A DNA stretch of 64,000 nucleotides from an uncultured Pseudomonadales bacterium (GTDB lineage: Bacteria; Patescibacteriota; Microgenomatia; UBA1400; PJMF01). Below are positions 3,050 to 44,795 of the stretch, in pieces. The stretch spans positions 73,440-137,439 of the forward strand of contig CAZMXT010000001.1 in NCBI GenBank assembly GCA_964570365.1. Direction: 5' to 3'. The position numbers and the translations under genes are program-made. How positions within the stretch are numbered: position 1 is the first letter of the stretch; the number at the start of each line of letters is the position of its first letter. The notes below the pieces were generated by a model, which ran no database searches, was not told where the DNA came from, and was given only the letters and a program-made list of their open reading frames with translations.

Positions 3050-3082
3050 TCTAATTAATCAATAACTTCTTGAGTGTAACAT

Positions 3083-6000
3083 ATGCAGTTGACCTTTCAA
3101 AAATCTAGCTGTATTGTTATTTTGAAAATAGCATTCACTTATACTTCGGATTTTCACTTAAAGGCAAAAGGTCGTTTGAAGATACTATCCTTTTTTAAAT
3201 TTTTAAAAAGAATACCCAGTTGGGTAACTGAGGTGGTAATTCTTTTTTTTCTCTCATGGACTCCTTTTTTTTGGTTAAAAAGTGATCAAGTAATTTTAGG
3301 TCATGACGCGGGATTTCGCCTAGATATGACCAATTACTTACGTGACCTTTGGTATTCTTGGACCCCCTCACCAGGTTTTGGAGCTGATTGGACTCTTAAC
3401 AAGGGTTTTCTTATAGCACAAACTCCAGAAACTTTTTTTACTTTTGTGACTAATGATGTATCTCTAGGTCAAAGACTTTCATTTGTTTTTTGGTTTTTTA
3501 TGATTGGCTTATCTATGTATATCTTTGTTAAACATTTTTTCCCAAGAAAAGAATTCTTTACTTTCAGAATATTTTCAAGTTTATTTTATATGTACAACTT
3601 TTTCTTGCTGCAAGGCTGGTTTATTACCGAGAGAGGAAAGTTTTCTCTATATGTAGCACTTCCATTAGGACTACTTATCTTATACGAAACATTACTAAAA
3701 AAAATTCCTCCTTTGAAGGGTGCTACTTTATTTGGACTTATTTTCTTTTTTTTCAATGGAGGTGGCTCACCTCCTCTTTACGGAGCAATTTTAGTCGTCT
3801 ACAGTGTGAGTTTTTTCTACCTATCTTTTGTTAATATCTGGCAAAATGGAGCTAAGGGTTTACTCCATTCTTTAAAAACTATTTTTCTTTTTGGAGTAAT
3901 TACCGTACTTTTAAATTCTTATTGGATTATTCCGCAAATCCAGTTAGCAAAAAATCAATACGGAGCTAGACTAGCCGCATCTGGAGGAATTGAAAGCATA
4001 CTTAACTGGGAAAAGACTGTCAGTAAAAATGCAAGTCTTATAAATCTTTTCCGCCTACAGGGCATACCTGATTGGTACGATAGTCCTAACCACACTTATT
4101 CCCGCTTTTTTCTAGAAAATCCCCTCCTTATTGTATTAAGCTTCTTGCCCATTTCACTGATACTTCTTGGTCTTTTTCTTCATCACCGTTTTAGAGTTGA
4201 AGAAAGAAATGATCACTTATTTTTTCTCATTTTGCTTATTTTAATAGTGAGTTGTTTGTTTGCAGCAGGCTCGCACGACCCTTTTGGCTCAATCTACTTG
4301 CTCTTTATTAAGTATATTCCAGGATTTGCTATATTTCGTTCAGCGATATATAAATTTGGCCCAGGTGTTTGGTTCAGCATTATTTTCCTTTCTGGATACT
4401 CTCTCAACTTCTTACTCCTACATCTGAGATCTAGAAAAAAACTTTCCCTTGTAATAACTAGTCTGAGTATTTTCACTTTGTTGGCATATCACTTTCCTTT
4501 TTTTACGCATCAGTTCTTTCAGTTTGATCCACCATTTGGCACCCGCGTCGCGGTCCCAAAGTATGTGATTGAAACTGCCGGATACATGAATAAGAATGCT
4601 TCCTCAGATTCTCGGCTTTTACTATTACCCAAACTTTACCCTTCATTCCCTGTTGATAGTTATAAATGGGGCTTCTGGAGTTTTGACTTGCTTCCTAGAT
4701 TAAGTTTTTCTCACTCTGTTATCGTTAATGAGGCTGGAGCTCCTCCAATTATTGATTCCTTGTACAAAGCTGCTGATCAGCAGAATCTTTTAGTGTTCAA
4801 CCGAATTAGTCAGATGCTAGGAGTCAATTATGTGCTTTGGAGGTCTGACATTCTCTATCATGATAAAAAAACCCAAGCGAAAGAATTTTCAGATAATCTC
4901 TTCTCTCCAATGAACGCTAATCACCCCGAATCTGTAAAAGATTTTAATGAGTGGCAGCTGTACCCTTTAACTACCTCTTCCAAACTTTTTTCAACCCATC
5001 AGAGAGCCACTTTAACCCAAATCTCTGGTTCTGGATTTGCGAAAGTTCTTGAATCTGAGCCAGTCATGTCCCCGGGCAAGCTCTACTTGGATCAGGCTGA
5101 TTTAGAAGAAACTGCTTTAAGTAGAGAGCTCAGCCTTGATTCAGCTTATATTATTGAAGCACATTGTCTCAACTGTCATTACCTGACTGATCCCAACTTT
5201 CCCTTATTTGGTGTAAGTTTCCCATTTGTAAGATTCCTTCCAAACTCGCTTATATATCCGTATGTTATTTTTAAAGAAAACGAAGCCTTAGCAAATGCAA
5301 GCAATTCTCCAGTCAAAAAGATTGATACTGGTCTACTTTTTGCTGACAAAAGAATTAATGAAGTTTCGTTTCTTCTGCAAGAGCATCAGGACGCTAGATT
5401 AGCGGAGAGCCTTCAGGCAACTATCAACAGATATAAGTCTTTAATAGCAACGATACAGACTGAACTACCTGAGCTCTCAGGACTCACCCAGCGAGAAAAC
5501 CAAACTAAACTACTTTCTCATTTGTATGCACACCAGAAGTTACTGTATCAATCTTCCGGTGTTTCTAGTGAATTAAGTGAGTTTGTTCAAGCCACGCTCC
5601 GGAGCATCGAAGAAGAAGATAGTATTATTCAAAGGACAGGGTTTTTATCTTCCGCAGAAGCAGTGAATGTAAAGAAATTTCTGATTTCAGTTCCTGTATC
5701 TGGGACATACGAAGTACATTTAGTTAATACAGATGTCAAAAAAATAAAATCACTCTGGCAAGGAAAAGAAGTTGATCTTAGTAATGAGTTATCTCTTGAA
5801 GTAGGCGAGTATCAGCTAGAGATCATTTACCCAAAAGCCGAAAATCTCACTCTTTCTCGCCCAGTGGAAATTTCCGGAAAACTACAAGAAAAGAATAGTG
5901 AAAGAGTTGGGTTTAACATTCAAGACTTTGATCATGCCAGCGAGTACTTCATAAGCTTTGAGTACTTCAGCCAACAAGAACAATCCACCTCTTTTTCAAT

Positions 6001-6625
6001 CTTACAAGATAATGACCCACAACCAGAAAAGTACAAGCTGCAGCCTAAAACCAATGTCACACTAAAAAGCAATGGTCAATGGAACACCTATACACATTTC
6101 TTTGTACCCAATGAGTATGCAAAAGAAGTGAACCTCTTTATTACCTCCTTTAACTCTGAAGGAACAAATCCTGAAATAGAAATTCGGAATTTTGAGGTAA
6201 AGAAAATTGCTACACTAGATGTATTTTTAGTAAAGCAAGCTTCTCCAATCACCTCGAAGAATCTCAATTCAGAAAAAATTCCTATCAGTTTCACAACTTT
6301 GAATCCAACCAAACACTTGATACATCTCAACACTGCCCCAGAATCTTTCTTTCTACACTTTAATCAAAGTTACAATCCTGGATGGGCACTTTATCCTGCT
6401 GGAACCCCTTGGTGGCAGACACTCTGGAAAAAATCAATTGCGGCAGATGCTCACTTTATAGGGAACACCTATGCTAATACTTGGTACCTGAAAAATGCTC
6501 AACATCAAGACTTAATTGTTTTTTACCGACCTCAGGCCGTCTTTTACGCGGCTGCCTTAATTTCAACCATTATGATCATCTTTAGCACTTCCTACTTGAT
6601 TCTAATCACAAGAAAAAGAAAATGA
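3083..6625 (+). CDS. giant membrane protein: N-terminal multi-TM domain of about 480 aa plus a large C-terminal non-membrane domain of about 700 aa
   Basis: An 1180-aa ORF. The N-terminal half is hydrophobic, with GHDAGFRLDMTNYLRDLWYSWTPSPGFG in the first loop. The C-terminal half is hydrophilic and has one final TM segment (AAALISTIMIIFSTSYLILI). An alternative TTG start at 3176, preceded by AAAGG, would widen the 33-bp divergent gap. Confidence 0.65.
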   Translation: MQLTFQKSSCIVILKIAFTYTSDFHLKAKGRLKILSFFKFLKRIPSWVTEVVILFFLSWTPFFWLKSDQVILGHDAGFRLDMTNYLRDLWYSWTPSPGFGADWTLNKGFLIAQTPETFFTFVTNDVSLGQRLSFVFWFFMIGLSMYIFVKHFFPRKEFFTFRIFSSLFYMYNFFLLQGWFITERGKFSLYVALPLGLLILYETLLKKIPPLKGATLFGLIFFFFNGGGSPPLYGAILVVYSVSFFYLSFVNIWQNGAKGLLHSLKTIFLFGVITVLLNSYWIIPQIQLAKNQYGARLAASGGIESILNWEKTVSKNASLINLFRLQGIPDWYDSPNHTYSRFFLENPLLIVLSFLPISLILLGLFLHHRFRVEERNDHLFFLILLILIVSCLFAAGSHDPFGSIYLLFIKYIPGFAIFRSAIYKFGPGVWFSIIFLSGYSLNFLLLHLRSRKKLSLVITSLSIFTLLAYHFPFFTHQFFQFDPPFGTRVAVPKYVIETAGYMNKNASSDSRLLLLPKLYPSFPVDSYKWGFWSFDLLPRLSFSHSVIVNEAGAPPIIDSLYKAADQQNLLVFNRISQMLGVNYVLWRSDILYHDKKTQAKEFSDNLFSPMNANHPESVKDFNEWQLYPLTTSSKLFSTHQRATLTQISGSGFAKVLESEPVMSPGKLYLDQADLEETALSRELSLDSAYIIEAHCLNCHYLTDPNFPLFGVSFPFVRFLPNSLIYPYVIFKENEALANASNSPVKKIDTGLLFADKRINEVSFLLQEHQDARLAESLQATINRYKSLIATIQTELPELSGLTQRENQTKLLSHLYAHQKLLYQSSGVSSELSEFVQATLRSIEEEDSIIQRTGFLSSAEAVNVKKFLISVPVSGTYEVHLVNTDVKKIKSLWQGKEVDLSNELSLEVGEYQLEIIYPKAENLTLSRPVEISGKLQEKNSERVGFNIQDFDHASEYFISFEYFSQQEQSTSFSILQDNDPQPEKYKLQPKTNVTLKSNGQWNTYTHFFVPNEYAKEVNLFITSFNSEGTNPEIEIRNFEVKKIATLDVFLVKQASPITSKNLNSEKIPISFTTLNPTKHLIHLNTAPESFFLHFNQSYNPGWALYPAGTPWWQTLWKKSIAADAHFIGNTYANTWYLKNAQHQDLIVFYRPQAVFYAAALISTIMIIFSTSYLILITRKRK

Positions 6626-6978
6626 AGCGTCTTAACCTTCAGTTAATTAGGTTTATCCATAATAATCAGGAGCAAATTATTGTACTGATAGCGATATACA
6701 GTGTCATGAATTTTTTCTCTTCATTACCTTACCTCAACTTGTTTTTTACGCCTTGGACCACAATTCTTTTTGAAGGAATAGTTGCCACGTTGCTTTTTGG
6801 AAAAAGAGTTCCTTTTATTTTCGCTTTTATTTTATTGGGATTTTCCCTGTATGCAACTGTTTTTTCCTTTTATAGCTCTGCAGAAGATGCCGGAGTCTTT
6901 ATCTATATTTTTTTAACTCTTGGCTTTTTGATTCAGGTTGTAGGCTATTTACGCTCACTCCCTCACAGATCTAAATGA
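6622..6978 (+). CDS. small membrane protein (118 aa), hypothetical
   Basis: An ATGA overlap couples it to the upstream giant ORF. It has 3-4 predicted TM helices and no recognisable motif. Confidence 0.4.
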   Translation: MKRLNLQLIRFIHNNQEQIIVLIAIYSVMNFFSSLPYLNLFFTPWTTILFEGIVATLLFGKRVPFIFAFILLGFSLYATVFSFYSSAEDAGVFIYIFLTLGFLIQVVGYLRSLPHRSK

Positions 6979-6990
6979 TATGATAAAAAA

Positions 6991-8550
6991 ATGAAGAAAT
7001 GGTACTTTTTACTCTCACTGGGAATTATCTTACTCGCCTTTATCTTTCGCTTTCAACCACTCAAAGTACCCTTTTGGGTAGATGAGTTTAGTACCGCTTA
7101 CCAGGCTAATCTATTGCTCAAGTTTGGACCTTCGATTATTAGCAATCCCAATTATTACTTTGAACATCACAATGTAACTACACATGTTTTAGTGGCACTC
7201 TTTTTTCAGTTTTTTGGTCAAAGCGAGTTTGCGGCACGCTTCCCACTGATGATCATTGGCTCATTTGTTCCCCTGCTTATATTTTGGCTCGGAAAGAAGG
7301 TTTTTGACCCCCTCACTGGTATTACAGCCAGCGTTTTATCTATTTTTTCTTACTTTATGATTACTTGGTCCCGACAAGCAAGAGGATACGTTATTCAGCA
7401 GTTACTAGTTCTTTTACTTTTTCTGACATACTTCAGCATTTTAGAATCAAAAAGAAATCGCCCTTTCCTACTCTTTTTGTTAGGAATAATTATTCTGTTA
7501 GGAACGTTAACCCACATCATGTTTATGATTGCGTTCGGGACTATGATTCTGCACTTCTGCATATTTCATTTCTCAGAACTTAAAAAGTTTCTTAAGCAGC
7601 CATTTTTTTATCTGTGCATCGGCATATTTTTCTCGATCATTTGGTACGTTGGAATACTTGGCCAAGTAGGTGTTCAAGTAGCGACTATTGCAAGTGGACA
7701 GCTCTCAAATAACCTTTGGTATTATCACTCCTTTTTATGGCGTGAGTACTCCTTAATTACTTTTCTAGGCTTAATTGGACTAGGGCTTGCACTCATAACA
7801 AAAAAAAGATTTGCCTATTTGATTAGTCTCTACTTCTTTTTGCAGTTCATATTCTTGTGTTTTTTCTTTGGACCCTATGTTTCGCGTTACCTACTGCCAC
7901 TCTTCCCATTTTTATTACTAGGCGTTGCGTACTCGCTGACCTACTTTACCAATGCTCTTTTTAAAACCCAGCAGAAGTGGAAGGTACCCCAGCAGTTACA
8001 AAAAGCCCTACCGTTGATACTCGCCCTGCTGATCATTGCAAATGGAGATAAATTTACCCTTAAACCTAAAAGTTATTACTCAGTGAATCATGACTTCCGA
8101 GAAATTGCTGTGATCGACTACGATCAAGTCTATGACCTGATTAAAAAGAAAGGTGAGTTGGATAAAGGCCAGACTGCGGTTGTTGATACTTGGGGAGATC
8201 GTCTAGTTTGGTACTTGGGCACAGAGTTTGAAGGCTCGTACTTCTTTCGCTGGATTGATGGACAGGGATTAATGAAACAAACCTCATTTAGCTTTAACAC
8301 TCAGGGAGAAAAAGTATTGGGTAACCGAAATCAAGCTAAGTTTATGGGTGAGTTAGCCGATCTTCAACTGGCCATGAAAAAATATCCTAAAGGCTTCATT
8401 TGGATAGATGATTCTTCCCTTCCCAAAGAAGTTCTTGATTTTGCTGAAGCCAACTTTCACAAGGAGTTAGTCTTAGATCACTACACTTTAGATGATAATC
8501 CATACTCTATCTGGCCAGGGACACTTTACAGTTGGGGTATTAGTCTATGA
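6991..8550 (+). CDS. GT-C fold glycosyltransferase, PMT/ArnT-like (GT39/GT83-like)
   Basis: A 519-aa polytopic protein. The first extracytoplasmic loop reads PFWVDEFSTAYQA, with a DE motif after TM1 as in PMT/ArnT enzymes. The membrane domain is long and followed by a hydrophilic C-terminal domain. Confidence 0.55.
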   Translation: MKKWYFLLSLGIILLAFIFRFQPLKVPFWVDEFSTAYQANLLLKFGPSIISNPNYYFEHHNVTTHVLVALFFQFFGQSEFAARFPLMIIGSFVPLLIFWLGKKVFDPLTGITASVLSIFSYFMITWSRQARGYVIQQLLVLLLFLTYFSILESKRNRPFLLFLLGIIILLGTLTHIMFMIAFGTMILHFCIFHFSELKKFLKQPFFYLCIGIFFSIIWYVGILGQVGVQVATIASGQLSNNLWYYHSFLWREYSLITFLGLIGLGLALITKKRFAYLISLYFFLQFIFLCFFFGPYVSRYLLPLFPFLLLGVAYSLTYFTNALFKTQQKWKVPQQLQKALPLILALLIIANGDKFTLKPKSYYSVNHDFREIAVIDYDQVYDLIKKKGELDKGQTAVVDTWGDRLVWYLGTEFEGSYFFRWIDGQGLMKQTSFSFNTQGEKVLGNRNQAKFMGELADLQLAMKKYPKGFIWIDDSSLPKEVLDFAEANFHKELVLDHYTLDDNPYSIWPGTLYSWGISL

Positions 8551-13666: not shown

Positions 13667-14875
13667 TTAAGATACCCAATATCCCTGGATAAATAATACA
13701 GTATTAATCAGTAATAGAATGCACAAAATGCCTAGAAAGCATAGTGTAATCAGTGATTTTTTTGGTAAGAAATGAACGAGGACTAAGAAAATGGGGAAGC
13801 AAACTAATAAAAATCTGGGCATGCTTAAGAAGTTTCCCGTTAAAGTGGGGAGTAAAAATACACCAAGTCCAAAAAATACCCACGACGGTCTTACGTATTT
13901 GGCAGCTAATACTAGTAGAGGAAGCCCTAAAGTACCTGCCAAAAATTCATTCACCACAGTAAAGTACCGCCAGTTAAATGGCCGGAAGGTAAGCAGCGTC
14001 TTGAGCGATCTCCACCAGGTTTGGGGATATGTTATGAAGCCTTCTTGCCTACCCGCTCCAAAATCAGCCTGGACATGCAAAAAGTACAACGGATCTTTAA
14101 ACTCCTGCTGTAGAAAAAACATATAACTCAAAAGTCCTACGCTACTGCACAGAATCAGGACTGCTTGGGGCAATGATTTTTGGAAAAAGCTTTTTATAAG
14201 CTCAACGCTAAGAATTATCTTCTTTTTTTGCTGGCTCTGCTTTTCATAAAATTGAAGAGCAAGTTCAATGAGTAAAGCCGGAATCAAGAAGATTCCTACC
14301 ACCCGGGTAGCAGCAGCCAACATCGCAAAAAGACTAGCTCTAAACCACCAGCCCTTTCTGGCTGTATAAAATGAGCTAATAACTAATAAGAGAAATAATG
14401 ACTCAGTATAAAGAGCCCCTAAGAAAAAAGCTGTCGGGAAGAGAAAGAGTAGTAAGACTGCAAGCCATGCTTTATCTTTATCAAAAAATTCTTTGACAAA
14501 TGCATACCATACCCAAGCCAATAACAAACTAAAAACATTTGTTAGGACTAAACCACCTGCCAAAGAAATTAAGCTGGAGCCAAAGGTAAGATGCAAGAAA
14601 CCCAATATAATGTAGGGAAACAAAGGGAAAAAAGCCTGAACTAAACCGAACCCCACATATCCTTCAGCAGCAATCGTTAGATAATGAACTCCATCAAAGT
14701 TTGCCCAACTAAAAAGCCAACGAGGTAAATGTGTGCTTGGCAAAATAGTATCAAAGTAAGGAAACGATGGCTGATAAAGTAAAAAGCTGTCAGCAAAAAA
14801 ACTTAAACCAAATAGAGTTACCCGCCATATAATAAAAAAAAGGGTGATGAGAGCCAGCTCTTTTTTACTAAGCAT
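13667..14875 (-). CDS. polytopic membrane protein, candidate mannosyltransferase of the PIG-V/DUF2029-like GT-C type
   Basis: A 402-aa protein that is hydrophobic throughout. Its loop motif WANFDGVHYLTIAAEGY resembles the conserved loop of PIG-V/GT87-type membrane mannosyltransferases. This is recalled from memory, not searched. Confidence 0.45.
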   Translation of the reverse strand: MLSKKELALITLFFIIWRVTLFGLSFFADSFLLYQPSFPYFDTILPSTHLPRWLFSWANFDGVHYLTIAAEGYVGFGLVQAFFPLFPYIILGFLHLTFGSSLISLAGGLVLTNVFSLLLAWVWYAFVKEFFDKDKAWLAVLLLFLFPTAFFLGALYTESLFLLLVISSFYTARKGWWFRASLFAMLAAATRVVGIFLIPALLIELALQFYEKQSQQKKKIILSVELIKSFFQKSLPQAVLILCSSVGLLSYMFFLQQEFKDPLYFLHVQADFGAGRQEGFITYPQTWWRSLKTLLTFRPFNWRYFTVVNEFLAGTLGLPLLVLAAKYVRPSWVFFGLGVFLLPTLTGNFLSMPRFLLVCFPIFLVLVHFLPKKSLITLCFLGILCILLLINTVLFIQGYWVS

Positions 14876-16565
14876 TTATGATTTTTCTTCTAAACTGACT
14901 GATGCCACAGAGCGCTATTGCGATCAGAGTAAGTCCACTTGCTGAGTTCCCGATCAAACGCGGCCAAGTCCGTTGAGTGAAGCGTGTTTGAACTTGGTAC
15001 TGACCGGCTGGTAAAGTATATGCGAGCCTTCCTTTTATTTGTTCATTATTACTATAGCTCAGCTTGAGCCAACTCTGAACACCCACAGCTTTGACTCTTG
15101 TCTCCCAACCTGGGAAGTTCATAGTTGGCTCAGTTACTATTGAAGGCTCGGTTAACTGAAGTTCATAGTTACGATATGACCCCTTCCAGTTGTACACATT
15201 GATACTGCCTTTCCCCTCCAGTAAAGTAGGTGCTGGACTCCAGTCCGATATCTCGGTGTAGGTAAAGTTTTGAGGCAAGTTTTCGTTAGCTGTAGTTGTA
15301 CTTTGAGGAAAGTTATCATAACCAACAGACTCTTTATGAAAGTACGATACTGCCTCCACTCTAGTAAAAGTTAGGAGTTGAAGTAGTAATAGAATAACAA
15401 AGCAACTTTTTCCCCATTTTCCTAGTTGCTGATACACAAATGCAGCTAATGGAATCAAAAATACCACTAAGAATAAAGTTAACCGCCAAGGAAATTGTAT
15501 AAAATTAGCTAAGGGAACCAGCTGCCAAATCATTGCACTGAATTGAAGCTGCGCAACTAGAAGAATCCAAGCTATTCCTGTGCAAAAAAGCAGAGTTCTT
15601 TTACCATGCAGAGGAATTTTTTTCCAGATCTTAATTCCGATTACCTCAGTTGCTGCTACCAAAACAAAGAATTGGAGTAATCCAACGCTAAATGCTGCTG
15701 AGTCAATCCTCCCAGGATAAGAGAAACCAGACTTTAGTGGTGAAAAAAGGAGCTGTTTTAGAGTTGGGAAATGTTGCAAAAACCCTTGTGATATTCCCGC
15801 CCCATTAATCACTGTATATTTTTGCTCTAATAATGCTGGCAGCCAAAACCAAAGAGAAAGCAGACCTGCTAAGACAAGAACAATACTAAAATTACTCCAC
15901 ATCTTGGTTTTTTTTCCAAACCTCAACAACCCATAGGTGAACAGGAGCGGTGTCCCAAACAGAACAGTCACATTATGGGAAAGAAAAAATGCGGCTAAAA
16001 GGAAAACCAAAATAAGTTCAAACTTGAGACCTGGTGTCTTTGCCTTCTGAGCAATAGTGTCAATTCCAAGTAAGAGCCAAGGAAACAAGCTCAAAGCTAG
16101 TATCTCACCAATACTGCCACGGAAAAAAAATAACTGCAAAATATATGGGCTGGCAGCGAAGACTCCAATCCCAAAACGTCGGCTAGAAAGGTCAAATCCT
16201 AGCAGCTTTAACCAAAACCAAGCTCCAATCAAACCACTCACAATTGCTGTAGCAGCAAGTATTTTAAAAGTCAGCTCATACGAGACTTTGGCAAAAGAAA
16301 AAGGCAGTGACAGAATATTGGCTAACGGATAATTAAAGTTAAACACCGGATATCCGTAGTGATTCATAAGATTGGGAGCAAAACGAGGTGGAAACTGACC
16401 CTCACGCACCGCCGCCTTATAGTTCGCAAAACGAGCTAAGTGGTTCTCCCCATCGTGGGTAGTAGGAAAATCTGAGTGGAGAAAAACACGAGTAACAAAG
16501 AAAGCTAAAAATACAATCCAGCCAATAGTGGTGAGCATAGATTTAGCTAAAAGTTTTTTACGCAT
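14868..16565 (-). CDS. large polytopic membrane protein, GQFP-RW motif family (GT-C candidate; paralog of 32270 and 35399)
   Basis: N-terminal loop THDGENHLARFANYKAAVREGQFPPRFAPNLMNHYGYPVFNFNYPL. The same motif layout recurs in two other ORFs in the window. The membrane core is followed by a C-terminal domain of about 150 aa. Confidence 0.6.
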   Translation of the reverse strand: MRKKLLAKSMLTTIGWIVFLAFFVTRVFLHSDFPTTHDGENHLARFANYKAAVREGQFPPRFAPNLMNHYGYPVFNFNYPLANILSLPFSFAKVSYELTFKILAATAIVSGLIGAWFWLKLLGFDLSSRRFGIGVFAASPYILQLFFFRGSIGEILALSLFPWLLLGIDTIAQKAKTPGLKFELILVFLLAAFFLSHNVTVLFGTPLLFTYGLLRFGKKTKMWSNFSIVLVLAGLLSLWFWLPALLEQKYTVINGAGISQGFLQHFPTLKQLLFSPLKSGFSYPGRIDSAAFSVGLLQFFVLVAATEVIGIKIWKKIPLHGKRTLLFCTGIAWILLVAQLQFSAMIWQLVPLANFIQFPWRLTLFLVVFLIPLAAFVYQQLGKWGKSCFVILLLLQLLTFTRVEAVSYFHKESVGYDNFPQSTTTANENLPQNFTYTEISDWSPAPTLLEGKGSINVYNWKGSYRNYELQLTEPSIVTEPTMNFPGWETRVKAVGVQSWLKLSYSNNEQIKGRLAYTLPAGQYQVQTRFTQRTWPRLIGNSASGLTLIAIALCGISQFRRKIINA

Positions 16566-22234: not shown

Positions 22235-23485
22235 ATGACTTCGTTCCGTCCTATTCATTTATTGATCGTGATTTACTTAATCTCCAGATTATTCATTTGG
22301 GTTTTTCGACCCCAAGCCTTTAGCGAAATCATTTACAGTTATATGCCTTATGCCCATCTCTGGGCCAGTGGCACCAAACCATACCTGGAGCAGTGGTACG
22401 AATATCCACCAGTGACAATTCCGTTGTTTTACATACCCCATATCATTGATCGAGAAACTCGTGAAACTCCTTTTCACTTGAACTACCTACAAAGTTATCG
22501 AGGTTTGCTATTGATTGTTGATCTACTCCTTTTTGGATTGATCTGGAAAACACTACAAAAGCAAAAAGTTGCCTTACCAATTTTTATTACTGCTGTACTC
22601 TATTACATTGGGGTTACCACAAAAGCTCACCACTTTCTGTATGACACCATGGACCTGACTTTTGCCGCTTCGCTCACTCTAGCAGCAGCCGCACCAGTGA
22701 TTTTATCTGCCAAAACTGCCAGCTTTTTTTCTTGGCTGGGCACTTTTTTGGCAATTGGCTTAAAGTACGTCAACGCCCCCCTAATACCGATCTATGCTTT
22801 GTTAGAGCGACAGAACTGGAAACGACTAGTGGTGTCTGGCTTTATTGCCTTTGCGTTAGTCTGGGCATTGCCACTCAGTTTGTTCCGATCTTCCTTGTCT
22901 GTCAGCTTGGTTTACCACGATATGCGCGGAATTCAAGTTGATAGTGCAGCAGCCATTCTCCTCAGAACTATTGACCAATTTACTCAGAGTGAGCGGATCA
23001 TCGAGATTTATAAGAATTATGAAGTTACTGGCCCGCTGACGGATCAAGCCAAGAGCGTAATGAAAGTTCTTTTTCCAGCTTCACTGCTTATTTACGTAGC
23101 TATCGCATGTTGGTTAGTGCTTAAGGTAACTCACAAACGCAGTCAGTTTCTCCGTATTCATCTCACTCTAGGGTATATCTTACTTTTTATGCTCACTGGA
23201 AAAGTGCTTTCGACCCCATTTCTCCTCTGGCATATTCCTTTACTCGCCATCTACCCTTTTACAAGCCTCAAGAGGCAACTGAGCTTTCTCGTCCCTTCGG
23301 CCATCATTATCTTTGTATCAATGACTCAAGTTTCCAATGATCTGATTGGTATTTTTCCTATTCCCTTAATTGTAGGATGGATTCGAACCCTCGCTTTTGG
23401 CTTTCTGTTTATTCAATGGCTCTGTCTGACTAGAGATGAACAAAGAGAAGCTCATTCTCCAGTTACTAGTGCAACTGATAAATAA
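22235..23485 (+). CDS. polytopic membrane protein, candidate GT-C (GT87/DUF2029-like)
   Basis: A hydrophobic 416-aa protein. Its loop motif YEYPPVTIPLFYIPH resembles the YPP-containing loop of GT87-like membrane glycosyltransferases. This is recalled from memory. Confidence 0.45.
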   Translation: MTSFRPIHLLIVIYLISRLFIWVFRPQAFSEIIYSYMPYAHLWASGTKPYLEQWYEYPPVTIPLFYIPHIIDRETRETPFHLNYLQSYRGLLLIVDLLLFGLIWKTLQKQKVALPIFITAVLYYIGVTTKAHHFLYDTMDLTFAASLTLAAAAPVILSAKTASFFSWLGTFLAIGLKYVNAPLIPIYALLERQNWKRLVVSGFIAFALVWALPLSLFRSSLSVSLVYHDMRGIQVDSAAAILLRTIDQFTQSERIIEIYKNYEVTGPLTDQAKSVMKVLFPASLLIYVAIACWLVLKVTHKRSQFLRIHLTLGYILLFMLTGKVLSTPFLLWHIPLLAIYPFTSLKRQLSFLVPSAIIIFVSMTQVSNDLIGIFPIPLIVGWIRTLAFGFLFIQWLCLTRDEQREAHSPVTSATDK

Positions 23486-25124: not shown

Positions 25125-26777
25125 TTAGTATGTCACCTCATTTGGTGTCCTAGTAACTGTAAATCGAACTTTTCCGTCTGTACCCCTCACAACTGCCATT
25201 GCTTTTTCAGCTGGAATTTCACTCGGAGTGGCAATGATTAAAACGTTTTTCCGACCTAAATCCCCTTCATTAATGCTGCGACTAAACTCATACTTAACCA
25301 ACGAACCCCCGTGGTACCAAATCGGATTTGTTTTCCGAGAGAAAAGTGCAAAGATATAAGGTTGTTGATAAAAATCTGTAAAGAGAATTCTTTCAACCTC
25401 TGGCTCATACTGCTTGGCATACTCCATTACTTCTAAGTACCCATCGAGAAAGTCTACACTCACTTCCCGTTGATAGCTGCCATAGTAGCGGTGTAAGTAG
25501 CTGAGCGAAAAGAGACAGTGTAAAAGCAGCCAAGTACCTACAACTGACTTAACCAGTAATTCTTTTTCTGACTTCGTTCCATTAACTCGCTGATTTAATG
25601 AAAGTGGCTGCAGTAACTTCCAAAGTGAGTCTGCGCCTGCCACAGCTAAAAGCAGGAATCCTGGCAAAGCTAGTAGTGCACGATTACTATGTGGAATATC
25701 TCGGCCAATAGCTGCTGGCAATAAGCCAATAAGAATCCAACCCACTGCAATTAACCAGAGTTGCTTTTCATCTGCGATGACCGAAATTTTTTTACGCAGA
25801 AATATAGGAGAGAGGACTCCCGCTACAACCAGCAAGAAAGTTGTTGGCAACAAGACTCCCCAATGACCATCACCGTGACGCAAAGAATTTGTCCATCCAA
25901 AACTCAAAAAAGCTGGCGAGATATGTGCCGAAAAATGGTAGATAAATGCTTCTAATTTTTCCACTGGACTCAGTGGTAATGTAAAAATGGTACTCTGCCA
26001 GAACCTATCAGCTCCGTGACCAAATAGTGAATCTTGAATGAGTGGTAAGAGACCAATGCTGGTTAGTACTCCCACGCAGAGCAGACTTTTGCGCTCAATC
26101 CAAAATACTTTTCTCTTTAAAAATATGAACAGTAGTACTAAAAGAGGCACCACAATTTTAGTACTGTGATAACTATATAAAGCAGCTGCTAAAAAAGTAC
26201 TAGTTGCACCAATATTAAAAAAGCGCTGCCATGCTTTAACTACCTGATTTAATCTAAGTAAGAAAACCAGGGACCAAATCAAAAAGCAGAGAGCAATCCC
26301 ACTTTCGAAACCAATTCGAGAAAAATGAATATGCCACGGAGAGAGGGCAATTAATAATCCTGAGAGTAATGAAAGTGAAGCCGCCGAGAGAAAAACATTC
26401 TCCTCCTTATTTACTACCGACTTGCGTTCTAACAACTGGTAGGTAAGCAAAATCATCCCTCCAACCGCTGCAACCCCAGCCAGTGCAAAAGGTAATCTCA
26501 CTGCCCAGAGGTTCATTCCAAATACAACAGTGAAAAAACCATTTAGATAGATTGGTAACGGCGCTTTGTAGTCGCCAAAAGAACGAAATGAAGTAGGCAA
26601 TCGATTCAACCACTCATCACGGCGCGTGGTCCAGACAGCATACCCATTGTAACCAATTGCAGCTTCATCCCAGCTCATACCATGTGGAACTTCTCCAATT
26701 TTGTAGAGACGTAAAACTGTGGCCAAAATCAAGATTAAGCCCACAAGAATCAGCCATCGTTTAGAAAGCAGATTCAT
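25125..26777 (-). CDS. GT-C glycosyltransferase, PMT/ArnT-like (GT39/GT83 family)
   Basis: Loop 1 reads MSWDEAAIGYNGYAVWTTRRDEWLNRLPTSFRSFGDYKAPLPIY. The start is placed at the internal Met (MNLLSKRW), where the ATG at 26775-26777 forms an ATGA overlap with the stop of the upstream GT2 gene. The longer track ORF running to 26855 is probably an artefact. Confidence 0.75.
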   Translation of the reverse strand: MNLLSKRWLILVGLILILATVLRLYKIGEVPHGMSWDEAAIGYNGYAVWTTRRDEWLNRLPTSFRSFGDYKAPLPIYLNGFFTVVFGMNLWAVRLPFALAGVAAVGGMILLTYQLLERKSVVNKEENVFLSAASLSLLSGLLIALSPWHIHFSRIGFESGIALCFLIWSLVFLLRLNQVVKAWQRFFNIGATSTFLAAALYSYHSTKIVVPLLVLLFIFLKRKVFWIERKSLLCVGVLTSIGLLPLIQDSLFGHGADRFWQSTIFTLPLSPVEKLEAFIYHFSAHISPAFLSFGWTNSLRHGDGHWGVLLPTTFLLVVAGVLSPIFLRKKISVIADEKQLWLIAVGWILIGLLPAAIGRDIPHSNRALLALPGFLLLAVAGADSLWKLLQPLSLNQRVNGTKSEKELLVKSVVGTWLLLHCLFSLSYLHRYYGSYQREVSVDFLDGYLEVMEYAKQYEPEVERILFTDFYQQPYIFALFSRKTNPIWYHGGSLVKYEFSRSINEGDLGRKNVLIIATPSEIPAEKAMAVVRGTDGKVRFTVTRTPNEVTY

Positions 26778-27697
26778 ACTTGATCCCTTTTCCACCACCA
26801 GTATGGCTGCCATAAAATAAAAAGCATTTTTTGAGTCAAACTTCCATTTCTCCAAGTAAAGACACGGGCATTGCGCCAGCTCATTTGAGTAATTCTCTGC
26901 TCACCAAAAACCTCCGCGTTAGTCGTTTCATGATAATGTTTCACTCTAGCCTGATTCTCAAAGAGAACTTGCCAACCTTTTTTCCTGGCTCTAAAAGATA
27001 AATCTACGTCTTCCCAATAGGCTGGGTAGTAAACTGGGTCAAACCCTTTTAGCTCTAACCACTTCTGTTTATCAAAGATGCCACTCCCCCCGCTCACCCA
27101 GGCCGTAGGGCCGGATGCAAACTCTGTGGCTCGTGCATGGATGAAAAGTCCTCTCTCAAACCACAACGAATTTTTGCCTCCCACCACCTCTTCTTCTCCT
27201 TCAAGCGTTTGCTCTTTTTCTAGACAGCCCACCGCAAACACTGCTGAGTTATTAAAATGAGGCAGAAGATACTTGAGAATATCGGCAGCTGGCTGAACGT
27301 CAGTATTAATCAAAAAAACTAGTTCATGTTTTGCTTGCTCTACAGCCCGATTACAGGTTGCCGCAAAGCGAAGATTCTGTCGGTTTTTTATCAAAGTAAT
27401 TGTTACACTTTTATTTGGATGAGTTAACTCAGTTCGCATCATCTCAAACTCTGAGGAAGAAGATTTTTGAGTATTGTCCGCTTGAGCATCGGAGAAGAAC
27501 TGCTGTTTTAACCACTCGCAGCTATTGTCTGAACTGGCATCGTCCATAATGACAATTTCATCCCCACTTCGGAGCATGGCAATTACCGAGGCTAAGTTAT
27601 CTGCCAGTAACGCCTGACCATTAAAGTTTGGAATAATAGCAGAGACATTACGACCACCATAAACTGGGTCGTTCGCAAAAGAAGAAATCGAAGTCAT
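26774..27697 (-). CDS. GT2 family glycosyltransferase
   Basis: It has VSAIIPNFNGQALL...IVIMDDASSDNS...NTDV and a C-terminal YWEDVDLSFRARKKGW region typical of GT2 enzymes. Confidence 0.8.
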   Translation of the reverse strand: MTSISSFANDPVYGGRNVSAIIPNFNGQALLADNLASVIAMLRSGDEIVIMDDASSDNSCEWLKQQFFSDAQADNTQKSSSSEFEMMRTELTHPNKSVTITLIKNRQNLRFAATCNRAVEQAKHELVFLINTDVQPAADILKYLLPHFNNSAVFAVGCLEKEQTLEGEEEVVGGKNSLWFERGLFIHARATEFASGPTAWVSGGSGIFDKQKWLELKGFDPVYYPAYWEDVDLSFRARKKGWQVLFENQARVKHYHETTNAEVFGEQRITQMSWRNARVFTWRNGSLTQKMLFILWQPYWWWKRDQV

Positions 27698-31666: not shown

Positions 31667-32271
31667 TTATTAATTTTTATGACTGTCTCATTTAACCACA
31701 TTTTATCTTTTAAGAACTCCACTTCATGTTTGCGGTAATCAAAGAGCCCATTTGCCCGACGAAGGTCATCAGAACTACGTAAAAAAAATAGCTGGATATT
31801 TCCAGCACCATCTTGGAAAACTGCAGTACCCTCATTTTGGAAGCGAGTTGTTTGGTTTGGAAGCTTTCTTTCCACCAGTAACTCTGAGAGGGAGGGTCGG
31901 CCACGCACAATGATCTCCTGACTACTTAATAACGGCGAGTGAAATTCTAGCAAGACTGTCTCTTGAGCTTCAGGATTGGGAATCGGGTTCTTCATCTCTA
32001 GTGTGCCAGTTAAAGTAACCAGCTCGCGGTTAAAGGTAAAGTTGCCAGGAGAATAATGTTCTCGGAACTTCCAGTACTTTTGCGGATCTAGAGTTTGGGT
32101 TTCTTCCAGTTGCTTTAGAAAAGTCTCTAGAGTCATTGCCCTGCGCGCTGCAAAAAGTTGGTGCGAGAAGCTGGGTACTAGGAGCAAGGCCAGCAACAAC
32201 ATACTTAGACCCACGAAAGCAGTAAAAAATACTGAGACGGATTTTTTAGCTCTAGGATACAATGAGGACAT
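31663..32271 (-). CDS. membrane-anchored hypothetical protein (N-terminal TM plus soluble domain)
   Basis: A 202-aa protein with one N-terminal TM helix (VFFTAFVGLSMLLLALLLVP) and no recognised motif. Its start codon overlaps the start of the divergent 32270 gene (CATG). Confidence 0.45.
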   Translation of the reverse strand: MSSLYPRAKKSVSVFFTAFVGLSMLLLALLLVPSFSHQLFAARRAMTLETFLKQLEETQTLDPQKYWKFREHYSPGNFTFNRELVTLTGTLEMKNPIPNPEAQETVLLEFHSPLLSSQEIIVRGRPSLSELLVERKLPNQTTRFQNEGTAVFQDGAGNIQLFFLRSSDDLRRANGLFDYRKHEVEFLKDKMWLNETVIKINK

Positions 32272-33994
32272 GCGATTTTTAGCTCAGCAACTTTGGCGTA
32301 GCAAAGATATTTTATACTGTCTACTCCTTTTCATTGTAGCACTGGTTTTCTCCCTAGACCTCTTCTTACATCAGGGGCGGCCAGCTACTTTTGATGGACC
32401 AACTCACCTAACAACGATGGCTCAATTCTTCTTAGGGATGAAAGATGGGCAGTTCCCAGTCAGCTGGGCAGATGGCTTTGCAAACTATGGCATGCCTATT
32501 CCTTTGATTGCTCAGCAACTGACTTCTTACTTAGGTGGTGCATTCATTTTTTTTACTCGGGATGTGGTTTTGGCCTATAACCTGGTAGTATTGCTCGGAG
32601 CAGTCCTTTCTACTTGCTTTTTTTACGCTTTTCTACGCTTATTTTTTAAACAAGAAAGCTCCTTAGCGGGGAGTATTCTGTTCAGTTTAGCGCCCTATCG
32701 AATCATCAACATTTATACTCGTGGAGCCATCCCTGAATTTTTTGTGGCGGTTTTTATTCCCTTAATTGCGATTGGTATGGTCACTTTTTTTCGTGATAAA
32801 AAGAACTGGGGTTTACCCGTTTTTCTAATAGGACTGTGTGGACTAATTTTGAGTCACCCCATGATGCTCGTACCTGCCAGTTTTATCTTAGCTCCGGTCG
32901 CTCTGGTAGCCAGCTGGTCTTGCTGGAAAAACTGGCGTCAAGTACTTGTGATTGGCTTTTTGACTGGAGCCGCTTTTGCGCTTACTGCCTACTACTTGGT
33001 TCCGCTATTTGGAGAAATTAAGTATTTATATTATGGACAAGGAACCAAGCACTTTATTTCCAACAACTTCCTGACCTGGAAGAACTACTTCCAACCTGCA
33101 TGGCCGTACTACACTGCTACAGATATTGGACCACGCGGCCAGTACTTTCATCTTGGAACAGTGGAAATGGTGGCACTACTTGCCGGTGCTGTGGTCACCG
33201 TTATCCGCTTTATAAGAAAACCGCACCGAAACCTGACGGTGTTAGATGGCGCATTAATCGTCACCGGAGTTATTATTTTCTTCACTCTCTCTGTGTCTGA
33301 ACCGTTATACAGAGCTCTTTTACCATTAAATAATATTCAACATCCCTGGCGCATGTTAACTGCGCTGATTTTTTTGCCACCATTTATTTTGGCCTATCTT
33401 CTGGATCAAATGAAAGCTCTGCAAAAATACCAATACTGGTTGGCCGGCGCAGCCGTCCTCCTAATTTGTGGTCTTCGCTTCCCTCAGCTCTACGGCAAGA
33501 ATTATATCTGGTATCCAGATTCTTTTTACTACTTCACCCCGATTAACTTGCATGGCGAGGTCTTAAATACGATCTGGACCGGGAGCAGCAGAGACTACTC
33601 GATCCAGTCCCAAAAGGCTCAGATTATTGGCGGCAACGGGCAGATCGCACAGATGAACGTACTGACCGGCCAACGTCAGTATCAAGTTTCCGCCACGACT
33701 CCGATCCGAATGGTGGACTACACCTTCTACTTCCCTGGTTGGAAGGCATATGTAGATGGACAAGAAGTACCCATAGAGTTCCAAGATATGAATTACCGGG
33801 GCGTAATTACGTATCAAGTTCCAGAAGGAAACCATCAGGTAATGTTGCGTTTTGAAGATACGAAGATGAGACTCTTGGGTAAAGTGGTGACCGTATCTAC
33901 GGTGATCAGCCTAGTTATGATCTACTTTTGTCTTAGACTGCGTAACTCAGCAAAGAGTTTTTCCCGACCGAGCAAGAAGAAAACAGCTAAGTAA
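32270..33994 (+). CDS. large polytopic membrane protein, GQFP-RW motif family (GT-C candidate)
   Basis: N-terminal loop FDGPTHLTTMAQFFLGMKDGQFPVSWADGFANYGMPIPLIAQQL. It is a paralog of 14868 and 35399 and is 574 aa. Confidence 0.65.
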   Translation: MRFLAQQLWRSKDILYCLLLFIVALVFSLDLFLHQGRPATFDGPTHLTTMAQFFLGMKDGQFPVSWADGFANYGMPIPLIAQQLTSYLGGAFIFFTRDVVLAYNLVVLLGAVLSTCFFYAFLRLFFKQESSLAGSILFSLAPYRIINIYTRGAIPEFFVAVFIPLIAIGMVTFFRDKKNWGLPVFLIGLCGLILSHPMMLVPASFILAPVALVASWSCWKNWRQVLVIGFLTGAAFALTAYYLVPLFGEIKYLYYGQGTKHFISNNFLTWKNYFQPAWPYYTATDIGPRGQYFHLGTVEMVALLAGAVVTVIRFIRKPHRNLTVLDGALIVTGVIIFFTLSVSEPLYRALLPLNNIQHPWRMLTALIFLPPFILAYLLDQMKALQKYQYWLAGAAVLLICGLRFPQLYGKNYIWYPDSFYYFTPINLHGEVLNTIWTGSSRDYSIQSQKAQIIGGNGQIAQMNVLTGQRQYQVSATTPIRMVDYTFYFPGWKAYVDGQEVPIEFQDMNYRGVITYQVPEGNHQVMLRFEDTKMRLLGKVVTVSTVISLVMIYFCLRLRNSAKSFSRPSKKKTAK

Positions 33995-35406
33995 ACCAGC
34001 ACCGTTAAGATCATTCCAGAGACCATATTTGGAAAACTTCTGGACCACACCCCACTTAAACTCACCCCAACTAAGGCCATTGCCCCTGCAGCTACTAACT
34101 GTCGCCAGGTATTTTCCCAGACCTGAACTGGCAGTATCTTACGCACATACCAAATTGGTAACACGGAACTAAACGAGATAATAAATGCCGCAATTGCCAC
34201 TCCTTGAAAGCCAAACCACCAAATCATTAAAGGCGTTAAAATCCAGGTTAAAGAGGTCCACATAATCATTAACTTTAATGTCACATCAATCTTACCAATT
34301 GCACTCAGCGTATTGGTCAGGGGAGTAGAAATTGCTCCCCAGCCAATGCTTAAGGTAAACAGAATAAAGGTCAATAATGCTGGCTGCCACTTTTGATACT
34401 TCGCCACCAGTGATATGAAGGGTCCAATAAAAACACACATCCCAATGAGTAGTGGGAAAATGGAGAGTGAGATAAAAAATAAGGTTTTTTCGATTGCCTT
34501 GCGCAGCAGATTACGATCGTGTTGCAATCTTGAGTATGTGGGGAAGGTAATTGCAATCACGTTCTGGACCGTCAACTGGTAGGGAACTTGAGACCATTGC
34601 TTGGCAAAGTTAATGTAGCCAAATTCCTGTAAAGGCAAAAATAAGCCCAGGAAAAGATAAAAAAGCTGATCCTTAATCCTTGCTAGAAAATCATTGAGCT
34701 GGAACTTGGTACCCGTCCCCAGCATAGTCCGCAAAGCCACCCGATTGAGTGCAAAGCCAATTGGCCACCGTTGAATTAGATACATGACCAGTACTCCGAG
34801 TATAGAGCGCAGCAAAATCGCATACATATAGGACTGGACCCCGAAGCCATTTACGGCTAAATAAACCAAGATGCCATAGTACGTTAGCTGCTCAACTACC
34901 TGGGGAAAAACCATTTTAGAGAAATCTAACCTGCGTTCGAGAATTACTGAAGGAATAGTTTTTAAACTGGCTAAAGGGAAAGAGATACCCAAGGCGAGTA
35001 AAACGAATACGCCATTGGCGCCAATCTTTGGGGTTAAAACCCCACTCATCGCTAAACCTACCGTAATCAAGAAGATGAACCAAGATAAGATCTGCTGAAC
35101 CGTAAAAACGGTACGGTACTCGGTGACCGTCGGCGAGTCTTTTTTCTGAATCAGCGCAGACGCTAAACCAATATCAGAAAAAAACGTCAGTAAACCAATA
35201 ATGCTGGTCACCACTCCGTAAATGCCAAACTCTTGAACTGTTAGGTATGCTCCCAAGACAAAAGATGCACCTAAACCAATAAGGTGTAGCAGCAGTGTAC
35301 GAGCCATGTACGAGGCAGCCCCAGAAACGGATTTGCGCTTAATCTCTTGGACTTCTTCTGCGCCAATTCCTTCTAGCGAAGTTGTGACAGCAGCTGTTTC
35401 AGACAT
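33922..35406 (-). CDS. Wzx-like flippase / polysaccharide biosynthesis protein (MOP superfamily)
   Basis: It has about 12-14 predicted TM helices. The start is placed at MSETAAV (ATG 35404-35406), giving an 8-bp overlap with the upstream gene; the track's longer ORF starts at 35442. No soluble domain is present. Confidence 0.6.
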   Translation of the reverse strand: MSETAAVTTSLEGIGAEEVQEIKRKSVSGAASYMARTLLLHLIGLGASFVLGAYLTVQEFGIYGVVTSIIGLLTFFSDIGLASALIQKKDSPTVTEYRTVFTVQQILSWFIFLITVGLAMSGVLTPKIGANGVFVLLALGISFPLASLKTIPSVILERRLDFSKMVFPQVVEQLTYYGILVYLAVNGFGVQSYMYAILLRSILGVLVMYLIQRWPIGFALNRVALRTMLGTGTKFQLNDFLARIKDQLFYLFLGLFLPLQEFGYINFAKQWSQVPYQLTVQNVIAITFPTYSRLQHDRNLLRKAIEKTLFFISLSIFPLLIGMCVFIGPFISLVAKYQKWQPALLTFILFTLSIGWGAISTPLTNTLSAIGKIDVTLKLMIMWTSLTWILTPLMIWWFGFQGVAIAAFIISFSSVLPIWYVRKILPVQVWENTWRQLVAAGAMALVGVSLSGVWSRSFPNMVSGMILTVLVYLAVFFLLGREKLFAELRSLRQK

Positions 35407-43824: not shown

Positions 43825-44795
43825 AAAAAGCGTTTATAACTGGGATAACCGGCCAAGATGGTTCGTACCTAGCTGAATCACTCTTAGAAAAGGGCTATCA
43901 AGTGTATGGCTTAAATCGCCGGACAAGCACCCAAAATTTTGAACGGATTCAATCAATTATTCACAACCCAAACCTGCAGTTGGTTTCTGGTGACTTACTC
44001 GATCAGCATTCCCTGACTGTCGCCTTGAAGGATATTCAACCTGATGAAGTGTACAACTTGGCTGCTCAGTCATTTGTTAAAACGAGTTGGGACCAACCAG
44101 TTCTGACTGGTGAGTTCACTGCTCTGGGGGTGACGCGAATGCTTGAAGCCGTGCGTTTTGCTTGCCCACAAGCTCGTTTCTACCAAGCTAGTTCTTCCGA
44201 GATGTTTGGTAAAGTTCAGGAGGTACCTCAAACCGAAGACACGCCTTTCTACCCTCGCTCGCCTTACGGCGTTGCGAAGGCATACGGACACTGGATTACA
44301 GTCAACTACCGCGAATCTTTTGATCTCTTTGCGTGCTCGGGCCTACTCTTTAATCATGAGTCTCCTCGCCGTGGCTTAGAGTTCGTAACTCGCAAAATTG
44401 CCAATGCCGTAGCTCGAGTGAAGTTAGGAAAACAACAGCATGTAGAACTGGGCAATATGGAAGCCAAGCGTGACTGGGGCTATGCCAAAGACTATGTTGA
44501 AGCCATGTGGTTAATGCTTCAACAAGATAAGCCTGAAGACTATGTCATTGCTACCGGAGAAACTCATTCTGTACAAGAATTTTTAGAGCTGTCATGTCAA
44601 GTGGCTGGGATTCAAGATTGGCAATCTATTTATAAACATAACCCTAGCTATGACCGACCAGCAGAAGTAGATCTCCTGATCGGAAACCCTTCAAAAGCCA
44701 AGCAAAAATTAGGTTGGAAACCCACCATTACCTTCTCACAACTAGTTGAGTTAATGGTTTTAGCTGAGCTTAAAATAGAAAGTGCTGCTCAATGA
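43821..44795 (+). CDS. gmd: GDP-mannose 4,6-dehydratase
   Basis: It has [36 protein letters not shown]...YNLAAQSFV...[21 protein letters not shown]...NHESPRRG, the canonical Gmd. Confidence 0.9.

Follow-up and report, generated by a model that had tools for sequence, protein, structure and literature searches.

A putative AftD-like GT-C glycosyltransferase with a distinctive ectodomain in a Patescibacteria genome

What is the role of a large membrane protein whose relatives are abundant in sequence collections and annotated merely as 'hypothetical'? We address this question for an open reading frame (ORF) encoding 1180 residues, which lies in a stretch of 64,000 nucleotides (hereafter 'the window', G+C content 43%) on contig CAZMXT010000001.1 from an uncultured, ultra-small bacterium of the Patescibacteria, or candidate phyla radiation (CPR). 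The envelopes of these bacteria are almost uncharacterized; their cells are attached to hosts, and surface glycans likely mediate the contact. An earlier note, made from the letters of the window, had described the protein as a GT-C-like membrane domain joined to a large extracytoplasmic domain, with an architecture like that of AftD- or EmbC-type arabinosyltransferases or of YfhO. The analyses described here point to the first of these relationships: with a probability of roughly three in four, judged from homology and predicted structure, its product is a divergent, AftD-like GT-C glycosyltransferase that would act on a cell-surface polysaccharide. The protein is a distant relative of AftD, but not a clean member of its family. 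The four checks recommended in the note (fold, topology, carbohydrate-binding modules and start codon) spoke for its reading, though with modest E-values in the case of the binding modules.

The ORF is a genuine, conserved gene and did not arise by chance, since a sequence search returned 382 homologs of its product and a full HMMER scan with a profile built from 97 sequences reached thousands of 50%-identity clusters (9744 at E<=1e-3 and 1903 at E<=1e-30). The closest non-identical relatives share 39% identity with it in full-length alignments, and all named homologs stem from Patescibacteria, mostly from the Microgenomates group (Levybacteria, Gottesmanbacteria, Roizmanbacteria, Woesebacteria and Dojkabacteria), plus one Parcubacteria genome. 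The glutamyl-tRNA synthetase encoded in the window likewise shares 71–72% identity with proteins labeled 'Patescibacteria group bacterium', compared to about 61–64% with those of Saccharimonadia and Microgenomates. Many third-party annotation (TPA) records of metagenome-assembled genomes (MAGs) with this Patescibacteria-type gene bear the title 'uncultured Gammaproteobacteria bacterium' (among loci L006–L057), and the contig of one such record is identical to that of GCA_964416505.1 (L005/L008); these titles look like mislabels, not like evidence of the family in Proteobacteria.

The coordinates confirm both the extent of the ORF and the gap of exactly 33 bp (3050..3082) that separates it from a divergent neighbor starting at 3049 on the minus strand. 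Residues are numbered here from the annotated ATG. The loop singled out in the earlier description, GHDAGFRLDMTNYLRDLWYSW, comprises residues 73–93 and follows immediately upon the first transmembrane (TM) helix. An AlphaFold2 model built on the 97 sequences reached a mean predicted local distance difference test score (pLDDT) of 84.9 and a predicted template modeling score (pTM) of 0.86. Hydropathy, together with DSSP assignment of this model, yields 11 TM helices within residues 46–474 (46–65, 126–152, 156–170, 184–204, 210–223, 230–255, 257–277, 347–365, 377–394, 421–447 and 452–474), where about 12 had been estimated before; an additional amphipathic helix (residues 28–43) precedes TM1. 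The large hydrophilic domain with a single TM helix at its C-terminal end, by contrast, is as had been described, and covers residues 475–1148 (674 residues). When the 11 model helices are threaded through the membrane with the N-terminus set inside, all five short loops predicted on the cytoplasmic side are rich in lysine and arginine (FPR, LKKIP, an AKG turn, LHHRFRVEERN and LRSR-KK); likewise, the segment before TM1 holds nine such residues, and the C-terminal tail reads RKRK. Because of this positive-inside pattern, both termini are predicted to be cytoplasmic and the 674-residue domain to be extracytoplasmic, as in AftD. A cytoplasmic placement of this domain, which according to the earlier note would have refuted its reading, is thus not what the loop charges predict.

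The closest structural relatives of the model are found in AftD. In a Foldseek search of the PDB, the three AftD cryo-EM entries came first (6w98_A, 6wby and 6wbx, E 5e-14 to 1.4e-13), with 6w98_A matching over the whole chain (TM-score 0.44/0.40, E 5e-14), followed by oligosaccharyltransferase (OST)/STT3 structures at about 1e-6, PglB at 8e-4 and, at rank 36, AftA at 4e-3. In the alignment to AftD, the model displays both parts of the GT-C_A fold, the N-terminal module of 11 TM helices and the soluble α/β domain. Sequence comparisons across the family lead in the same direction: GT-C_AftD is the sole glycosyltransferase family of Pfam that is matched by family members, ten of 25 at E<=0.1, and six homologs that are 35–39% identical to the window protein over their full length exceed its cut-off of 26 bits (P0013 with 41.1, P0063 with 33.2, P0057 with 33.1, P0084 with 32.3, P0014 with 30.1 and P0054 with 28.5). 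The match of P0013 extends from residue 53 to 594 and from position 23 to 541 of the 661 profile positions, and the matches in the homologs cover the α/β domain. The two other architectures that had been considered find no such backing. In the protein and 25 family members, neither an Emb-family Pfam match nor a match to the YfhO profile (PF09586) was found at E<=0.1, and the 50 best Foldseek matches contain no Emb chain.

Conservation within the family is strongest at G73, D75, G77, E116, R162, N172, Q177, E183, R184, K186, D525 and D589 (97 sequences). These residues are located in the external loops and the α/β domain, not in the distal domains, a pattern that would fit an active enzyme. 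G73, D75, G77 and E116 of the first external loop are invariant, and D75 (codon at 3305..3307) is a candidate catalytic or donor-binding aspartate. The α/β domain harbors the invariant residues D525 and D589 and the motif W529-G-F-W-S-F-D535, the last position of which is acidic (D or E) in an alignment of 25 sequences. In AftD, residues K39, D41, E251, K361 and D474 were shown to be essential, K39 and D41 being part of the first external loop, and D474/E475 are among the authors' most plausible catalytic residues (bioRxiv 10.1101/2019.12.22.885152). When a profile covering the first 620 residues, drawn from 45 genomes, was compared with the PDB, AftD was the top match at a non-significant E of 0.12. 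This weak alignment is colinear, with profile positions 41–104 on AftD 46–107 (the first external loop) and 452–583 on AftD 439–569, and it places the AftD stretch 'WGLTRDE' opposite 'WGFWS(L/F)D' of the family; the 'DE' of AftD corresponds to D474/E475, assuming that the deposited chain has an offset of +3 from the numbering in the paper.

Several observations weigh against this assignment. For the window protein itself, neither Pfam nor NCBIfam yields a glycosyltransferase match, a phmmer search against PDB sequences came back empty, and GT-C_AftD (PF11847, gathering threshold 26 bits) is not matched even at E<=0.1. The membership of the protein is consequently one by transitive homology and predicted structure. 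Likewise, a phmmer search of the PDB with P0013, the best Pfam-matching homolog, returned nothing, and the full-length profile did not find AftD there, its best match being a CBM4 structure (1gui) at E 0.26. The whole-chain TM-score to AftD is merely 0.40–0.44, at 9% identity, and the pairing of D75 with AftD D41 extrapolates from where the weak alignment ends, with an uncertainty of about two residues. The matches of the distal domains to carbohydrate-binding modules (CBMs), discussed below, are modest (E 1e-5 to 1e-3), and β-sandwiches of MAM domains and toxins score alike. Finally, no donor synthase or flippase within the window could be assigned specifically to the large gene.

If the protein is a GT-C enzyme, its acceptor might also be another protein, such as an S-layer protein or a pilin, as would be the case for an OST-like enzyme. 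STT3, OST and PglB structures are the next-best Foldseek matches after AftD (E 8e-7 to 8e-4, TMt 0.39–0.48), and the conserved neighbor of the gene resembles the PMT_2 family, which includes protein O-mannosyltransferases. The E-value of AftD, however, is better by about seven orders of magnitude, and its alignment spans the whole chain. Furthermore, the protein has 11 TM helices, as does the N-terminal module of AftD, whereas OSTs of the STT3/PglB/AglB type have 13; a WWDYG-type motif is absent, the corresponding conserved stretch being WGFWSxD; and the distal domains are CBM-like. Overall, an OST-like activity appears unlikely.

For the C-terminal domain, the earlier note had recommended a search for CBMs. 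Past the α/β domain, a loop that is poorly modeled (pLDDT below 50 for residues 702–708) carries two cysteines, C695 and C698, which are kept in at least 90% of the 97 sequences, are followed by a histidine in the window protein and may form a disulfide or a metal site. The chain then enters a bundle of five helices (residues 725–738, 743–766, 773–797, 800–824 and 829–852, according to DSSP of the model), which matches DUF5667 at an E of 1e-3, below the cut-off, in the window protein, and in 21 of 25 family members with a best E of 3.4e-7. For the β-structured part, a separate model of residues 855–1150 (pLDDT 84.7) was compared with the PDB. It retrieved β-sandwiches of enzymes (GH31 5f7u at 3.8e-5, GH101 EngBF and GH66) as well as stand-alone CBMs (CBM4 1gui at 3.6e-4 with a TMt of 0.46, 3p6b and 3k4z; CBM16 2zew with a TMt of 0.47; CBM22 4xup). 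On the sequence level, the corresponding signals are weak: besides the profile match to 1gui mentioned above, Pfam CBM_4_9 is matched by two of 25 family members. In the predicted structure, the distal β domains thus resemble CBMs. Short-form members of the family (890–1055 residues) lack exactly residues 919–1044, and the CBM-like jelly-roll is accordingly an insertion module. The final, membrane-proximal β-sandwich, with invariant W1101, N1132 and W1134, is the sole extracytoplasmic part besides the GT-C domain that is common to paralogs of 640–680 residues (for instance, L005 9601-11601 matches residues 1068–1179). All features are compiled in Table 1.

Table 1. Coordinates of the large gene, its predicted domains and its conserved neighbors in the window
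Feature	Position	Strand	Basis
Divergent neighbor: PMT_2-like GT-C membrane protein, 552 residues	1391..3049	-	homology to the upstream gene elsewhere
Large ORF, ATG start, 1180 residues	3083..6625	+	ORF list and translation
Annotated first 31 codons, probably untranslated (5' leader and divergent promoter region)	3083..3175	+	comparative
Proposed coding sequence, TTG start, 1149 residues	3176..6625	+	comparative
Membrane module, residues 46–474	3218..4504	+	DSSP of AlphaFold2 model (pLDDT mostly >90), hydropathy, loop charges, Foldseek
First extracytoplasmic loop, residues 66–125, motif G73-H74-D75-x-G77-F78-R79	3278..3457	+	conservation, AftD profile alignment
Extracytoplasmic α/β domain, residues 480–692, soluble half of the GT-C super-domain	4520..5158	+	mixed secondary structure, AftD alignment
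C695-x-x-C698 motif in poorly modeled extracytoplasmic loop	5165..5176	+	conservation
Five-helix bundle, residues 725–852, DUF5667-like	5255..5638	+	model, sub-threshold Pfam match
β-sandwich region, residues 863–1052	5669..6238	+	separate model of residues 855–1150
CBM4/16-like jelly-roll insert, residues ~919–1044	5837..6214	+	Foldseek of the separate model
Membrane-proximal C-terminal β-sandwich, residues 1068–1148	6284..6526	+	model, conservation
C-terminal TM helix, residues 1149–1176, then cytoplasmic tail RKRK	6527..6610	+	hydropathy, model, loop charges
Small membrane protein, 118 residues, 3–4 hydrophobic segments	6622..6978	+	4-bp overlap of its start with the stop of the large gene

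Where the protein begins is a question of its own. An in-frame TTG at 3176-3178 (codon 32), preceded by AAAGG, had been put forward as an alternative start, and a comparison across homologous genes favors it. The first 31 residues have no counterpart in the homologs, whose N-termini align from about residue 32–43 onwards, residues 32–49 being similar to the N-termini of, for instance, P0028 and P0084; residues 1–26 are modeled with a pLDDT of about 30. Furthermore, we took the longest possible ORF in each of 51 homologous genes from species-representative genomes and counted the residues before an invariant glutamate (E50 in the window protein): the median is 11, and the count is at most 21 in 46 of the 51 and at least 47 in three. 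In the window protein, this number is 49 from the ATG at 3083 and 18 from the TTG, and there is no other ATG, GTG or TTG between 3176 and E50. In a search of a representative library, the profile match likewise starts at residue 46 of the window protein, compared to residues 1–20 in most others. Given the lack of homologous residues, the low pLDDT, the distance to E50 and the absence of a further start codon in between, TTG 3176 is probably the better start, and the annotated one lies about 31 codons too far upstream. The divergent intergenic region would thereby grow from 33 to 126 bp; the promoter-like hexamers within it (3089..3117 on the plus and 3100..3073 on the minus strand; four sites versus 2.1 expected) are barely above background. 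The argument from AAAGG (3160-3164, followed by AAAAGG at 3166-3171, which ends 4 nt before the TTG) carries little weight, since Shine-Dalgarno-like motifs seldom precede the window genes; most of them do without, and we rejected such a motif as decisive support.

Close relatives are uninformative in this respect, as the 1180-residue members of the same 90%-identity cluster (8–9 sequences) differ at no more than three residues (>99.7% identity), none of which lie within residues 1–100. In another protein of this cluster, P0121 (NCBI MDZ4785704.1, 1099 residues), the NCBI start is at M82; this start looks mis-called, in the opposite direction, because TM1 and the invariant D75 are missing. Elsewhere in the window, longest-ORF starts overlap upstream genes by 140 bp (52663..53643 and 53504..54901) and by 82 bp (25125..26855 and 26774..27697); these two starts are probably over-extended too, as for the large ORF.

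The gene has conserved companions, which, like the helical bundle, the earlier note had not anticipated. Directly downstream, its stop codon overlaps the start of a gene for a small membrane protein, which probably passes the membrane four times, judging from its hydrophobic segments, and in which solely P36-Y37 are conserved. Homologs of this protein are encoded at the same position in 31 of 34 long-form loci, compared to one of 14 short-form loci. Its family has no recurrent Pfam match among 31 members, GtrA and SMR not being found even among the weak matches, and we have dismissed the idea of a GtrA- or SMR-type flippase. The divergent neighbor upstream shares 26–32% identity (E 1e-47 to 1e-57) with the product of the gene immediately preceding that of the enzyme in L001, L004 and L005; in most related genomes, this counterpart is encoded on the same strand, often overlapping the start of the enzyme, and it is inverted in the window genome. 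Its family occurs in the flank of 22 of the 34 long-form loci. Given an invariant D48-E49-W50 just past its TM1 and Pfam PMT_2 matches in five of 20 family members (best E 1.7e-6), we regard it as a second GT-C protein; its profile found nothing significant in the PDB. The annotated N-terminus of this neighbor is about 12–14 residues longer than in its homologs.

In many other genomes, a paralog of 640–680 residues comes next, which shares the membrane module, the last β-sandwich and the TM helix with the large protein and lacks the helical bundle and the CBM. It is followed by a GT2 protein of about 308 residues with two C-terminal TM helices, which is the architecture of a polyprenyl-phosphate sugar synthase. 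Neither is found at the corresponding position of the window; the PMT_2 gene at 6991..8550, considered as a counterpart of the paralog, is not homologous to it. In three genomes, the pair of enzyme and small gene is duplicated in tandem (L034 4447..12200, L035 1383..9129 and L055 4447..12239). The large enzyme probably works together with the PMT_2-like GT-C protein and the 118-residue protein.

On a larger scale, the first ~50 kb of the window constitute a glycan-synthesis island. It encodes many GT2 and GT4 glycosyltransferases, at least five polytopic proteins of the PMT/PMT_2 type and three of the PTPS_related type, two Wzx-like flippases and an LCP ligase, along with sugar genes, i.e. rml, a UDP-glucose dehydrogenase, a GDP-mannose dehydratase, an aminotransferase, a formyltransferase and a GT2-GtrA fusion. 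Four tandem paralogous polytopic proteins of 537–576 residues are encoded on the minus strand between 18865 and 26855 (18865-20478, 20462-22177, 23466-25118 and 25125-26855); they share 25–30% mutual identity, one of them matches PMT_2, and they look like a GT-C-like array that is interrupted by 22235..23485 on the plus strand. Three further paralogous membrane proteins of about 565–574 residues (14868..16565 on the minus, 32270..33994 on the plus and 35399..37096 on the minus strand) share about 25–28% mutual identity; two of them match Pfam PTPS_related or DUF6541, and the set is a probable source of additional extracytoplasmic glycan-modifying enzymes. The fusion of a GT2 with a GtrA/DPMS TM domain (44792..45964, plus strand) is located directly upstream of a PMT_2 GT-C gene (45982..47523, plus strand). 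It is the only GtrB/GtrA-type gene of the window, 38 kb away from the large gene and beside another GT-C; as a candidate polyprenyl-phosphate sugar synthase, it forms the clearest pair of donor synthase and GT-C in the window.

This inventory bears on the nature of the transferred sugar. Were the protein a true functional counterpart of AftD, it would be an arabinofuranosyltransferase using a polyprenyl-phospho-arabinofuranose donor, and AftD is both its closest structure and the namesake of the one glycosyltransferase family that its relatives match. The identity to AftD is just 9–10%, however, and the extracytoplasmic part is built differently: it includes a helical bundle and has a single clear CBM-like module where AftD has three, and TM13–16 are missing. 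Pfam scans of about 50 ORFs in the 64 kb of the window brought up neither a phosphoribosyltransferase of the UbiA type nor an epimerase of the DprE1/E2 type, and the nucleotide-sugar genes suggest other sugars, namely rhamnose or GDP-mannose-derived, UDP-glucuronate, amino or formylated sugars. Nothing points to arabinofuranose, Patescibacteria are not known to have an arabinan, and we consider this activity very unlikely. That the protein is a non-catalytic scaffold or glycan-binding anchor with a retained GT-C fold is hardly credible: it lacks direct matches to curated glycosyltransferase models, its ectodomain is large and of a binding type, and the adjacent second GT-C protein, or the shorter paralog in other genomes, could supply the catalysis, but D75, E116, E183-R184-K186, D525 and D589 are invariant in the 97 sequences precisely where GT-C active sites lie, and the distal domains are less conserved.

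For the AftD-like glycosyltransferase that we favor, the following mechanism can be envisaged. In analogy to other GT-C enzymes, a polyprenyl-phosphate-linked sugar would be made at the inner face of the membrane and flipped outward, where it may bind in a groove between the first external loop (H74-D75) and the soluble α/β domain (D525, D535 and D589). The invariant aspartate of loop 1 would, together with acidic side chains of the soluble domain, bind the donor, a cation or the acceptor. The distal β-sandwich and CBM-like domains, mounted on the helical bundle as a stalk, might hold a long polysaccharide acceptor, and the sugar would be passed on to a growing cell-surface or cell-wall polysaccharide.

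Beyond the single enzyme, one may speculate that the conserved genes form a module, i.e. one dedicated extracytoplasmic machine that builds or decorates the surface polymer of the episymbiotic cells. Its parts would be the PMT_2-like GT-C protein, the AftD-like GT-C protein and the 118-residue type of protein, joined in many genomes by the shorter AftD-like paralog and the GtrB-like GT2. The small protein would then be a split-off TM13–16 subunit or a new flippase for lipid-linked sugars. We regard this as a tentative and rather doubtful proposal; if true, the association of the small gene with long-form loci reflects a coupling of acceptor capture with the membrane subunit.

The fold assignment as such will not surprise specialists. 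Nonetheless, it ties a large family, annotated merely as 'hypothetical', to the AftD branch of the GT-C enzymes; at E<=1e-30, this family comprises about 1900 clusters of 50% identity. A literature search on AftD or GT-C enzymes in CPR bacteria found nothing. Known from work on mycobacteria and corynebacteria, AftD-type enzymes would thus reach into a distant phylum, where their ectodomain is of a different design. The family size, the missing annotation, the distinct ectodomain and the linked small partner offer an entry to the biology of the Patescibacteria envelope, starting with a testable putative active site (D75, D525, D535 and D589), a domain map and a set of conserved partners.

How does this system compare to those already known? 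In three-component systems of extracytoplasmic glycosylation, such as GtrA/GtrB/Gtr* or the GT136 system around ORF12 of Citrobacter youngae, a CBM-appended GT-C enzyme acts outside the membrane on the finished polymer, and its lipid-linked donor comes from a membrane-anchored GT2 and is flipped by a small or MATE transporter (PMC11127046). Loci related to that of the large gene encode, next to the enzyme, small membrane proteins and a GT2 whose C-terminus has two TM helices. The resemblance to these systems concerns organization, and the small partner described here is not detectably a GtrA, SMR or MATE protein. STT3, PglB and AglB share the GT-C_A fold, with a membrane module and a soluble domain past its last TM helix, and are the second-best structural matches; these matches are much weaker, the WWDYG motif of these enzymes is absent from the large protein, and they in turn have neither CBMs nor a helical bundle.

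The closest parallel is AftD itself (PDB 6W98, 6WBX and 6WBY; Pfam PF11847, formerly DUF3367). Both proteins start with a module of 11 TM helices, and in both, the extracytoplasmic region opens with the GT-C α/β domain, carries β-sandwich or CBM-like modules and returns to the membrane by a single helix, which in the large protein (residues 1149–1176) matches TM12 of AftD in position. Going by the weak profile alignment, the two may also have in common a conserved aspartate of loop 1 and, in the soluble domain, acidic residues that follow a conserved W-G. Set against these similarities are the low identity of 9–10% and three differences in design. First, the large protein features a DUF5667-like helical bundle of about 130 residues, which has not been described for AftD. 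Second, it has one clear CBM-like jelly-roll and two further β-sandwiches, whereas AftD has three CBMs and a structural sandwich. Third, it ends four residues after its twelfth TM helix and thus lacks the TM13–16 module of AftD, and the gene immediately following its own encodes a separate small membrane protein.

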